The notes: generated from the sequence alone by a model not told the origin. A stretch of DNA of 62,094 nucleotides from an uncultured bacterium (GCA_964544765.1 CAZJDM010000003.1:1-62094), one strand, 5' to 3'; counted from the stretch's first letter, positions 56,119-58,624 are shown. Translations and numbers: made by a program.

Positions 56119-57438
56119 GTGAAAAGAGAACTTATACAAGTGAATAGATTATTAGAGATGGGAAAAGTTCTTCTGTTATGTTGTATTGGTTTATCGTTTA
56201 TTTATTCATGTACTGATGATGAACCTAGACCTAAGAGTAAACGATCTTCAATGCCAGAATTAGTAAATGGTATAGATGCTGCTACGGTTGAGGCCATACA
56301 AGCCATGGGTCTTCCTGTTAACAAGTTTATAAAATTACCAAAAGTTAATCCGGAAGGTTTAACTTTAAGAAATTTTAGTGTGGGATTAAAGGACCTGACA
56401 TATGGCAGTGTGATCACTCTTTCGTATGATAAAGATGCTCAGGCTGATTATATTCAAATTAAGCGTTGCGATAAATCTATTAAGGTTGATGGGTTGTTAA
56501 ATCAAAGACTGGGTGAAGTTACCATGGAAGATGTAATTGCAGCAGAGACTAAATACAATCAGATAACTAATGGTAATGTTCAGGGAGCCAGGGAAGTATA
56601 TCAGGTTAGTGATTTCTGGCGCAGTGCAAGTGTTAGTGGTTGTGAAGTGATAACAAATCTAGCGGTAGAGGATCGTTATTATGATTTAACCGCCAAGCCT
56701 GATCACGAGTATTATTATTTGGCTAGAGTTTGTGTACGCGACAGTCGTATTGATGAAGTACAAGCAACTTCAAAGGGGAATTGTAGTTCGCGAATTAAAA
56801 GTTCCAATACCATTACTTATGTTGAGCCGGTTAATCAAAAGAAAAAAGAACTTAAATTAAGATATCAACAGGCGCGAAATAAAATGAATAAATTTGTTTA
56901 TTTTGTGCATGATATTGCCATCAAATTATATGACTCCTATGATAAATGTGAATTAAAAAATATCGAGGGGCAAATAAGTAAAACCAGAAAAGAAGGCTTG
57001 GCCCTAATAGCCGGAATGTCTGTAGGAGCCGTGGCTTCAGTTGTTTCTGGAGGGTGGAGCAGTATGCTGGGAGGCATAAGTGCGGGAGCTAAGATAGGAT
57101 CTGCTTTTAGTGATATCATGGCCTCGCCAAGTGAATATGAGCGAAAATGCACTGAGGCAGAAAAATATCAGGGTCAGCTTGAACCGTACCAGAATCAATA
57201 TCTCAATTTAAAAGCGGAAATTGATGATATTTTAGAGGATCTTAAGACTGTCGATAACATTGATATAAACACTCAAACGGAAACAGACACATTGGATAGC
57301 TCGCAACAAGAAAATAGAGATGAATTTGAAGATAGTTCCAATCAGGAAAATCCGGATGATATTGTGGATAATAGTGGAATTAGTGGTGATGATAGCGGCG
57401 TAAGTAATGGAGACAGTAGGAATGATAGTGAGGAATAA
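56119..57438 (+). CDS. Lipoprotein, paralog family A (Cys-patterned head, coiled coil, glycine zipper, acidic tail); gene 4 of 5
   Basis: 439 aa, with a GTG start 4 nt after the upstream stop. The lipobox is 'LSFIYSC|T'. Motifs are 'DYIQIKRC', 'VSGCEV...HEYYYLARVCV...GNC' and 'KCELKN'. The Gly zipper 'LALIAGMSVGAVASVVSGGWSSMLGGISAGAKIGSAF' is at nt 56995-57110. Confidence 0.6.
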   Translation: MKRELIQVNRLLEMGKVLLLCCIGLSFIYSCTDDEPRPKSKRSSMPELVNGIDAATVEAIQAMGLPVNKFIKLPKVNPEGLTLRNFSVGLKDLTYGSVITLSYDKDAQADYIQIKRCDKSIKVDGLLNQRLGEVTMEDVIAAETKYNQITNGNVQGAREVYQVSDFWRSASVSGCEVITNLAVEDRYYDLTAKPDHEYYYLARVCVRDSRIDEVQATSKGNCSSRIKSSNTITYVEPVNQKKKELKLRYQQARNKMNKFVYFVHDIAIKLYDSYDKCELKNIEGQISKTRKEGLALIAGMSVGAVASVVSGGWSSMLGGISAGAKIGSAFSDIMASPSEYERKCTEAEKYQGQLEPYQNQYLNLKAEIDDILEDLKTVDNIDINTQTETDTLDSSQQENRDEFEDSSNQENPDDIVDNSGISGDDSGVSNGDSRNDSEE

Positions 57439-58624
57439 TGCTGTGAAAAGTTTTTGCTATTTACTAATATTATCAATATTAATCATTTCATGTGATGAAA
57501 AACCATTACCTCGATTAGGCAAAGGATCCGGAACTAAGGATTTTAGCGGTCAGAGTAGTGGGTCGGGTCAAGATAATGATCCAGATGGCTCCACTAAACC
57601 CGAGTTGGTTTTTGTTGACCCTTATAAAATAGAGATTAGGAAGATAAGAATGATTTTGGAACCCCGGGTTGCAGGTTCGACTTTAGGGAAATTTCCTATG
57701 GTTGAGGTGGAACTAGATAGTAAAACTCAATATTATCAAGTTATGCGCTGTCCGGTTGATGTTGAAAGAAAGCTAGTTACTTCGATGGGGTATAATCCTT
57801 TAACCAAAGAATATAGTGAGTATTCTTTATTTGCTCGCGATGATTATAAAGAGGTTTGGTCTCAAGTAGCTCCTCGAGTTGGATGTAAGATGGTAGCAGA
57901 TTTTGGGGTAGGTAAGAAATTTCATGATATTACGGCTTCAAGTGGTTCTTTCTTTTATCTGGTAAAACCGTGTGTAGTACAAGAAAGTACAATACGATCT
58001 GATAGATGCCATTATAAATATTATAAGACTAATGCTATGGAATGGCTAAATCCGGTCGCTTTAGAAAATCAAGAATTATTGCAGAGATTACATGGAGAAA
58101 GGGCAGCGGCAACCAGGAAATTATTGCAAATGTCAGATTTAATTCTGGCGGCTATGAATTATTTGGAGATTTGTGAGTATAATGAAATTCAAAAGATAGT
58201 GGCCAAGCGTCAGAAGGCCGGATGGATAAAGGTTCTTGCTACAGCGGTGGTAGGAGTGGTTGCTGGGTATTTTGGCGGTCCATTGGTAGGATTTAAAGCG
58301 GCAGAGGCTACGTTGTCATTGGCGGATAAATTATTTTCCAAATATTCGGATGCTCAGGTTAATTGCCCTAAAGCTGACCCTCTTTTTGATGAATATTTTG
58401 CTTTACGAGAAGAAATCGACCCTCATCTTACTGCAGCCAAGGAAATTCGTACTCAGTTGGGAGAATTAAAAGCTGAGGATAAGGGAGAAGCGGTCGATTC
58501 GGGAGTAGGCGTTGATATTACAGCAGAAAATCCTACTTGGGATGATTATGTAGATGTAGTTGAGAGGTTGAATCAGACCGTAGGGGAATCTACTGATGAT
58601 TCGCAGATGAGAAATAATCCCTAA
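57407..58624 (+). CDS. Lipoprotein, paralog family A; gene 5 of 5
   Basis: 405 aa, overlapping the upstream gene by 32 nt (alternative start 57422). The lipobox is 'LILIISC|D'. 'QYYQVMRC', 'RVGCKM...GSFFYLVKPCV...DRC', 'ICEYNE' and the Gly-rich 'WIKVLATAVVGVVAGYFGGPLVGF' (nt 58222-58324) are collinear with ORF 56119. Confidence 0.6.
   Translation: METVGMIVRNNAVKSFCYLLILSILIISCDEKPLPRLGKGSGTKDFSGQSSGSGQDNDPDGSTKPELVFVDPYKIEIRKIRMILEPRVAGSTLGKFPMVEVELDSKTQYYQVMRCPVDVERKLVTSMGYNPLTKEYSEYSLFARDDYKEVWSQVAPRVGCKMVADFGVGKKFHDITASSGSFFYLVKPCVVQESTIRSDRCHYKYYKTNAMEWLNPVALENQELLQRLHGERAAATRKLLQMSDLILAAMNYLEICEYNEIQKIVAKRQKAGWIKVLATAVVGVVAGYFGGPLVGFKAAEATLSLADKLFSKYSDAQVNCPKADPLFDEYFALREEIDPHLTAAKEIRTQLGELKAEDKGEAVDSGVGVDITAENPTWDDYVDVVERLNQTVGESTDDSQMRNNP

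Follow-up and report, generated by a model that had tools for sequence, protein, structure and literature searches.

A widespread family of paired, predicted lipoproteins with an FN3-like head and a Gly-rich hairpin at the tip of a helical stalk

What kind of envelope protein is encoded by two adjacent genes that each join a lipobox, a Cys-patterned β-rich head, long helices and a Gly-rich, zipper-like segment? The two genes lie at positions 56,119 to 58,624 of a 62,094-nucleotide stretch of DNA from an uncultured bacterium (GCA_964544765.1 CAZJDM010000003.1:1-62094), the whole of which is called the window here. An initial annotation, made from the sequence, had proposed that the two open reading frames (ORFs), A and B, are collinear members of a paralogous lipoprotein family, with a larger upstream ORF, C, as a more divergent relative. 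We find that A and B are paralogs that go back to an ancient duplication within an unannotated family of predicted Sec-exported, lipid-anchored envelope proteins, with C as a third, divergent member, and we are confident that both the family and its architecture are real. Coordinates are collected in Table 1, and residue numbers (C117, C175, C205, C222, C277, C344 and so on) follow ORF A.

A and B align over ~380 residues with 23% identity (BLASTP E=5e-18). Their Smith-Waterman score of 191 lies far beyond that of shuffled controls (37±4.8, z=32), and all six Cys residues that follow the lipobox match up in the alignment. The ordered landmarks on which the family had been proposed were all found in place: DYIQIKRC, QYYQVMRC and DYVEFVRVMRC; WRSASVSGCE and WSQVAPRVGCK; the aromatic strands HEYYYLARVCV, GSFFYLVKPCV and GDYTYVVQGCF; and the long-helix ends KCE, ICE and RCD. 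Translation likewise bears out the Gly-rich stretches of A and B.

A word-indexed protein search returned only A when queried with A alone, and only two proteins were scored with a 60-sequence profile; thus, an exhaustive hidden Markov model (HMM) search was needed for this family. A trimmed A+B profile, run against 1.84 billion cluster representatives (50% identity clusters), retrieved 212 proteins at E≤1e-3, 46 of them at E≤1e-10. Conservation was counted in an alignment of 147 of the 212 representatives; 83 of the 147 fall into an A-type and 64 into a B-type clade, the split between the two being deep. The lipobox Cys is aligned in 133 of the 147 members and all six mature Cys are present in 134, as expected from the proposed lipoprotein nature and Cys pattern, and R116, D189, Y200 and S223 are also near-invariant. 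The lipobox of A has an atypical Tyr at −2; many members carry canonical lipoboxes, such as LSGC, LVGC or LSSC, and those of B and C read ...LIIS-C29 and ...IGSIS-C66. By the lipobox, A, B and C are all predicted to be lipoproteins. The acidic C-terminal tail, which had been listed as a family feature, proved to vary among homologs; in A its confidence in the model described below falls under 50 at residues 422-436.

The relationship of C to A and B is visible with profiles but not in pairwise comparison. Pairwise, C scores at chance or marginal level against the two (E=2.4 and 0.003; shuffle z=1.8 and 3.1). By contrast, comparison of the family profile with a profile of C orthologs using hhalign gave a probability of 97.5–98.3% (E=5e-12 and 1e-14) over the head and first helix, and A-type and B-type HMMs with no window sequence inside them match C with E values of 1e-14 and 1e-11 (hmmsearch). 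Of the two Gly-rich stretches that had been described in C, the second (LPMNNSRLG...) is conserved and the first is not kept in the L002 and L004 orthologs. The pairwise scores of C are what could be cited for a sceptical explanation, namely that there is no real family and that the landmarks are a chance or compositional likeness among Cys-containing, low-GC ORFs. Against this stand the z of 32 between A and B, the 212 homolog clusters with invariant Cys positions, the recovery of A, B and C by independent HMMs and the synteny kept across genomes of 34–54% GC. We consider chance similarity excluded on these grounds, its remaining probability being very small.

The combination of parts had been flagged as unfamiliar, and the databases agree. 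No Pfam or NCBIfam model matched ORFs A to E, and Pfam scans of A, B and C (E≤1) and of 60 other members (E≤0.01) gave no consistent family among the 60. Profiles of the family, of the hairpin, of C and of E found no relatives among PDB sequences, and neither A against plasmids nor B against phages gave a tblastn match.

We then turned to the predicted structure. An AlphaFold2 model of full-length A, built with a 60-sequence alignment, has a mean predicted local distance difference test score (pLDDT) of 75.5 and consists of a β sandwich (residues 83-234), three helices (240-309, 313-333, 345-406) and a tail modeled as disordered. The pLDDT is 82–96 over most of the core of the sandwich (residues 71-120 and 171-240), and the loop at ~120-165 is of low confidence (pLDDT <50 at 153-163). 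The head had been guessed to resemble FN3 or Ig-like sandwiches and, at the level of the fold, Foldseek agrees with the former: its matches in the PDB are almost exclusively FN3 domains, dozens of them (titin, Robo3, tenascin and cytokine receptors; probability 0.9–1.0, target template modeling (TM) score 0.55–0.67, best E=1.9e-3), with the top matches (titin, Robo3, tenascin) at probability ~1.0 and target TM score 0.6–0.67. The modeled head shares the seven-strand-type sandwich with FN3, and its AP-G---Y--R-CV strand can be read as resembling the F-strand tyrosine-corner motif. However, the head adds four invariant Cys and a helical insertion (residues 136-173) that are absent from canonical FN3, the Foldseek E value is only ~2e-3, and Pfam fn3 matched neither A, B and C nor the 60 other members.

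The coiled coil that had been expected after the head appears in the models as a pair of long antiparallel helices, a hairpin ~70 residues long with the Gly-rich segment at its tip. Modeled alone, the helical part (A 236-410, pLDDT 82.5) again forms one long antiparallel hairpin, with helices at 2-74, 81-99 and 110-174 in fragment numbering. In both A and B, the Gly-rich segment sits exactly at the hairpin turn, and the models do not bury it in the core of a known soluble fold. The Foldseek neighbors of the stalk are all non-significant (E at least 0.26 in the PDB and at least 0.098 in BFVD). Generic coiled-coil hairpins (SH3BP5, RipA, RipC, PI3K p85 and the Rad50 hook) make up this set, in which the pore forms of AhlB and SmhB also occur.

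Comparison of the tips across the family indicates what is kept at this position. Gly makes up 15.8% of tip residues against 5.0% elsewhere, a 3.2-fold enrichment. The tip follows the pattern G-x9-VG-x2-VG-x4-G(G/P), then a turn and a second helix, rich in small residues, with a conserved Phe at its end; the G-x3-G and G-(G/P) turn motifs are visible in the alignment. The predicted lipoproteins thus contain two consecutive Gly/Ala-rich helices with GxxxG-type spacing, modeled as a helix-turn-helix. In C, the helix ends at C305; the tip that follows is expanded to 174 residues, has two additional Cys and leads up to a C-P at C479.

Two of the conserved Cys, C277 and C344, flank the hairpin at about equal distance from the turn. 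All seven sequences without C277 have a second Cys three residues after C344 (KTCSEC, KACYDC), compared with an extra nearby Cys in only 13 of the 136 sequences that keep C277. This covariation fits a C277-C344 disulfide that has been replaced by a local CxxC, with the limit that the seven sequences form one clade and are effectively a single event, so that the Fisher p of 4e-7 overstates the case. Since conserved Cys lie on both flanks of the hairpin, both of its ends would reside in an oxidizing, non-cytoplasmic compartment.

A and B also belong together at the level of the genes. An A-type gene directly followed by a B-type gene, the stop codon of the first overlapping or abutting the start codon of the second, occurs at eight independent loci with GC contents of 34–54% (the window, L001, L002, L004, L009, L011, L013 and L014/L015). 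In the window, the start of A is the one chosen by gene callers in three other metagenome contigs, and B probably begins at ATG 57422, with GGAG 9 nt upstream, to give a protein of 400 residues. One natural fusion, P0018 (772 aa; L003 141-2459), joins an A-type part (17-427) to a B-type part (428-765) with no second signal peptide at the junction; its contig is only 3.2 kb long and was found in two samples. Taken with the ancient duplication and the translational coupling, this Rosetta-stone fusion points to a likely physical complex of A and B. At L014, the A-B pair stands alone, which suggests that the pair is the core unit and that C and the two further ORFs D and E are lineage-specific additions.

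In the window, C, D, E, A and B are tightly packed, with gaps of at most 4 nt or overlaps. They form part of a seven-gene cluster, F(-) G(-) C D E A B, which is found in the same order and orientation in four genomes of 34–54% GC. The flanks of the cluster otherwise differ, and rpsU comes after it in L002 and L004. Most of the products start with a lipobox-like signal, G having an ordinary signal peptide, and no known domain was found in any of them. The conserved cluster contains no gene for an ATPase, a permease or a β-barrel. A scan of the operon for promoters and terminators remained at background level.

From the anatomy of these proteins and by analogy, we tentatively propose, as the best-supported reading, that A and B form a hetero-oligomeric, disulfide-stabilized lipoprotein stalk in which the Gly-zipper hairpin acts, after export, as a second membrane-affine or oligomerizing element. 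In each protein, the lipobox Cys would be followed by ~45 residues of flexible linker, then by an FN3-like head with disulfide bonds and an antiparallel coiled-coil stalk of ~8 nm, with the Gly-zipper helix-turn-helix hairpin at the far end of the stalk and its base clamped by the predicted C277-C344 disulfide. Following export and oxidative folding, A would pair with B, probably through the stalks and hairpins, and in some lineages C, D and E may also join. The hairpin appears too weakly hydrophobic to stop transfer in SecYEG, so that it would either insert after translocation, forming a glycine-zipper element of two helices, or pack against the hairpins of its partners. The outcome would be a second, oligomerizing membrane anchor with the FN3 heads held ~8 nm from that membrane, in a role that may be structural, envelope-organizing or tethering.

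On this proposal, the family would be functionally closest to glycine-zipper lipoproteins of the SlyB, YfgH and OsmB type, with no detectable homology and a different architecture. SlyB, YfgH, OsmB and YiaD are described as two-transmembrane-helix GxxxG-zipper lipoproteins of the outer membrane that oligomerize in the membrane (bioRxiv 10.64898/2025.12.22.696046; Janssens et al. 2024 via PMC13082787). That group (Pfam Rick_17kDa_Anti and Gly-zipper families) shares with the present family the N-terminal lipobox, a Gly/Ala-rich two-helix GxxxG hairpin that is too weakly hydrophobic for a classical transmembrane segment, a β-sandwich domain on the periplasmic side, and paralogs that may oligomerize. 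In SlyB the hairpin comes right after the lipid anchor; here the domain order is reversed, the head preceding the hairpin and the latter being carried on the end of the ~8 nm coiled-coil stalk. In addition, the hairpin of the present family is bracketed by a conserved, predicted disulfide and its genes come in A/B pairs.

How hydrophobic the hairpin is bears directly on this proposal. The segment had been described as hydrophobic; it is present as described but only marginally hydrophobic, and it is not a classical Sec stop-transfer transmembrane helix. Its Kyte-Doolittle values are transmembrane-like in A and B (~1.8–1.9 over 19 residues), and ~60% of members have a 17-residue window of at least 1.6. 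The apparent free energy of insertion of the best 19-mer has a median of +3.2 kcal/mol in B-type and +4.6 kcal/mol in A-type members and is below zero in ~1%, rough values computed from a translocon scale with no position weighting. A positive insertion energy is compatible with post-translocational insertion but is no proof of it. Such marginal hydrophobicity may be what a protein needs if it is to clear SecYEG fully and meet a membrane afterwards.

Several observations weigh against this proposal, among them the roughness of these energies and the single-clade origin of the CxxC replacement. No Gly-zipper family of Pfam (PF05433, PF13488, PF13441) matched A, B and C or the 60 other members at the thresholds given above, and the hairpin profile, searched against PDB sequences at E≤10, found neither SlyB nor any membrane protein. 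The hairpin is amphipathic, not hydrophobic, in many A-type members, for example AALGKIIGTGIDLGAKLLG, so that packing in a soluble bundle fits these as well as membrane insertion does. The tip of the model has low confidence (~60). At position +2, B and C have Asp whereas A has Thr, and thus no one target membrane is indicated. Finally, L005 carries a solitary A-type gene with no adjacent B.

In a different explanation, which we consider somewhat unlikely, the hairpin would serve for contact between proteins and not as a membrane element. Bundling of the A, B and C tips would create a small hydrophobic core, or the tip would dock on E, on D or on an inner-membrane protein, much as the coiled-coil hairpin of EnvC, RipC or PcsB docks on FtsX. 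The complex, held to the membrane by its lipid alone, would be a scaffold or regulator in the periplasm. The marginal hydrophobicity of the hairpin and its amphipathic character in many A-type members suit such a role, as does the co-encoding of three paralogs with D and E. Small-xxx-small motifs drive helix packing in soluble proteins too. The coiled-coil hairpins of the N-terminal domains of RipA and RipC, in FtsEX complexes (8idc, 8jia), are among the best stalk neighbors, with query TM scores of 0.31–0.51; however, with E values of 0.4–1 these matches are non-significant, and they are generic for any long helical hairpin. EnvC, RipC and PcsB resemble the family as exported antiparallel coiled-coil hairpins whose tip is the functional contact. 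The family differs from them in that no hydrolase, LytM, NlpC or other catalytic or regulatory domain is attached, in that the conserved cluster holds no ABC transporter or FtsX-like gene and no ftsEX-like genes lie nearby, and in its Gly-zipper-like tip with the predicted disulfide clamp. The share of members with a transmembrane-like window (~60%) also speaks against a purely proteinaceous contact.

The tip tolerates polar insertions of 40–200 residues (P0009 and P0012 are examples), and the spacing between C277 and C344 varies between 45 and 269. Such tolerance speaks against a shallow dip into half of the bilayer, and leaves either a full two-helix crossing or a non-membrane interface. If the hairpin does enter a membrane, it might be a membrane other than that of the lipid anchor. 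A and B would then be a trans-envelope tether that sets or senses the width of the periplasm, in a role analogous but unrelated to that of Lpp or of spanning lipoproteins of the LpoA/LpoB type, which we regard as rather improbable. The geometry permits it, with a linker of ~45 residues (at most ~15 nm when extended), an FN3 head of ~4 nm and a stalk of ~8 nm, and the elongated molecule would carry two separate membrane-affine elements at its opposite ends, with an oxidizing compartment at both flanks of the hairpin. Geometry is, however, the extent of the support; the linker is long enough for both anchors to reach the same membrane, and the polar tip insertions would need to cross the second one.

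We also weighed a putative device for attack or fusion, in which the lipoproteins would be displayed on the cell surface and the disulfide-flanked, Gly-rich hairpin would insert into the foreign membrane of a prey or host, like the hydrophobic head of AhlB and SmhB or the disulfide-bracketed internal fusion loop that viral class I fusion proteins carry. Such fusion loops are brought to mind by a hydrophobic, Gly/Ala-rich loop that ends a helical hairpin and has a Cys on either side, and tripartite toxins by the three paralogs in one operon. The pore-form chains of AhlB and SmhB are among the top neighbors of the stalk (E 0.5–1, query TM score 0.30–0.43), one A-B pair adjoins a gene for a TLC ATP/ADP translocase, a hint of an energy-parasitic lifestyle, and two host genomes are seemingly small (contigs of 2.2 and 2.8 Mb). 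Nevertheless, we consider this explanation quite improbable. The structural matches are non-significant. Foldseek against BFVD gave no viral fusion protein and nothing below E=0.098, the sole fusion protein in the PDB sequence search, fusion glycoprotein F0, matched at chance level (E=0.96), and Pfam holds no toxin match. The predicted base-clamping disulfide and the lipid anchor speak against release of a soluble toxin, and the chromosomal neighbors are housekeeping genes (for example rpsU, queA and scpAB).

The likeness to the tripartite toxins of the ClyA superfamily (AhlB, SmhB, YaxAB) consists of a long antiparallel hairpin with a hydrophobic head and of paralogs in an operon. These toxins are secreted in soluble form and have a tail bundle of five helices; they are without the lipobox, FN3-like head and predicted clamping disulfide of the present family. 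The AhlB and SmhB matches to the stalk (E 0.5–1.1, query TM score 0.30–0.43) span the same range as those of the unrelated SH3BP5, PI3K p85 and Rad50 hook. A ClyA-like β-tongue was also considered; it found no sequence match and only the non-significant AhlB and SmhB hits in Foldseek, and is retained as no more than a low-probability analogy.

A broader and more speculative version, to which we give only a small chance, treats all five products, A to E, as parts of an undescribed, lineage-specific envelope machine made of lipoproteins only. Its disulfide-clamped hairpins, at the ends of 8-nm stalks, would be insertable probes that bridge the cell's two membranes or enter a foreign one, in the latter case in the manner of a fusion loop or a pore former, and the hosts would be deep-branching, possibly parasitic or predatory, uncultured diderms.

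Table 1. Positions of the genes and protein parts discussed in the text (window coordinates unless a locus is named).
Feature	Coordinates	Strand	Remarks
ORF A, A-type member, 439 aa	56119..57438	+	GTG start; GAGG Shine-Dalgarno-like motif 7 nt upstream
A signal peptide and lipobox (...LSFIYS-C31)	56119..56211	+	Cys31 is the predicted lipid-attachment site; read from sequence
A FN3-like β-sandwich head, residues ~76-234	56344..56820	+	AlphaFold2 model, Foldseek and conservation; holds conserved R116-C117, C175, D189, Y200, C205, C222
A antiparallel helical stalk (helix 240-309, tip helix 313-333, return helix 345-406)	56836..57336	+	AlphaFold2 models
A predicted disulfide-bracketed tip module, C277...Gly-zipper hairpin...C344	56947..57150	+	
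A Gly-rich, marginally hydrophobic hairpin GLALIAGMSVGAVASVVSGGWSSMLGGISAGAKIGSAFSDI, residues 293-333	56995..57117	+	Translation
A C-terminal tail, acidic, disordered	57337..57435	+	pLDDT 44–51 over the last three 10-residue blocks
ORF B, B-type member	57407..58624	+	Overlaps the end of A by 17 nt (from ATG 57422)
B head, homologous to A head (R114-C115, C160, C189, C201)	57614..58045	+	
B predicted disulfide-bracketed tip module, C256...AGWIKVLATAVVGVVAGYFGGPLVGFKAAEATLSLADKLF...C320	58172..58366	+	
B Gly-rich segment, residues 271-310	58217..58336	+	Translation
ORF C, divergent larger member	51707..53443	+	Lipobox Cys66; head pattern RC150, C216, C245, C251
C Gly-rich stretches	52672..52740 and 52990..53110	+	
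ORF D, small predicted lipoprotein, 165 aa, 4 mature Cys	53447..53944	+	Conserved operon partner
ORF E, large predicted lipoprotein, 725 aa	53937..56114	+	Conserved operon partner, no known domains
ORF G, secreted or lipoprotein-like, divergently transcribed	50618..51490	-	Adjoins the operon in four genomes
ORF F, predicted lipoprotein, lipobox LSAC, divergent	48751..50742	-	Position kept in four genomes, sequence loosely
Seven-gene cluster F G C D E A B	window 48751-58624; L001 2631-12638; L002 2643-11095; L004 3919-12372		
Two 71-aa antisense ORFs within gene A	56202..56417 and 56937..57152	-	Most likely spurious
TLC-family ATP/ADP translocase (PF03219)	L014 8219-9712; L015 677-2170	-	Directly upstream of the A-B pair
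Gene for an 8,332-residue product	L011 8892-11368	-	Runs off the locus end
411-aa predicted lipoprotein	L013 629-1864	+	Directly upstream of the A-B pair
MutL	21914..23899	+	
FG-GAP repeat protein, 1,285 aa	34419..38276	-	
CAP (cysteine-rich secretory protein) domain protein	10762..11514	+	
DUF4175 protein	3162..5822	-	

Some features of the genes around A and B deserve mention in their own right. The two short ORFs antisense to gene A are most likely spurious, because the plus-strand frame is conserved across the family. The TLC translocase gene is present beside the stand-alone A-B pair on both L014 and L015; the TLC family is typical of energy-parasitic bacteria and hints at the lifestyle of some carriers. 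Near the A-B pair of L011 a giant gene runs off the end of the locus. The predicted lipoprotein encoded directly upstream of the pair in L013 has a weak match to the A-type HMM (E=7e-11) and may be a C-like third paralog in a differently organized cluster.

Among the remaining cluster products, F carries the motifs VYVIAHG and ISSCFSG, which recall the His-Gly/Cys dyad of clan CD peptidases of the legumain or caspase type. A peptidase of this kind is at most a tentative lead: there is no Pfam or PDB match, and the motif region is missing in the shorter proteins at the same position in L002 and L004. E contains, at Cys111 and Cys522, two copies of a coiled helix followed by G-C-F-(L/Y)-x-x-P. 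In G, a helix is followed by the similar N-C-L-T-S-R-P, and both proteins end in NP.W......C. An origin of E as a tandem duplication of a G-like module is not supported (shuffle z at most 2.9; hhalign 5% probability).

The window also gives some indication of the host. The window, which is an entire metagenomic contig, has a low GC content (~32–38%) and encodes, besides the genes described above, LptF, LptG, ExbB/TolQ, MutL, MiaA, SSB and an SLT transglycosylase. Since LptF and LptG are both encoded, the host should be a diderm that contains lipopolysaccharide. The nearest relatives of its MutL among 5.8 billion proteins are 47–49% identical. Named matches come from Thermodesulfobacteriota, Deltaproteobacteria, Pelovirga and Acidobacteriota metagenome-assembled genomes, at 34–46% identity, the higher values over about half of the query, and do not decide the placement; a position in Bdellovibrionota/Oligoflexia would be a guess. 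Thus, the lineage of the contig appears to be deep-branching and poorly sampled. A sequence identical to protein A occurs on three more contigs from ENA metagenome assemblies, and a scan of genome collections with an A-subfamily alignment gave one metagenome-assembled genome only. Other envelope or secreted proteins of the contig include the FG-GAP repeat protein, the CAP domain protein and the DUF4175 protein listed in Table 1.

Glycine-zipper lipoproteins such as SlyB and YfgH have recently been recognized as organizers of lipid and protein nanodomains in the outer membrane, and the family described here bears on the question of how widespread and varied this principle is outside enterobacteria. 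It presents a new domain architecture, in which an FN3-like head, a long stalk and a Gly-zipper hairpin with a predicted disulfide clamp are combined in a heterotypic pair, often within an operon of lipoproteins. Should the hairpin not be a membrane element, the proteins would still constitute a well-defined family of unknown function that merits a database entry. If it is one, the pair would represent a new architecture for anchoring or bridging the layers of the envelope and would offer a way into envelope biology in a lineage that is uncultured.

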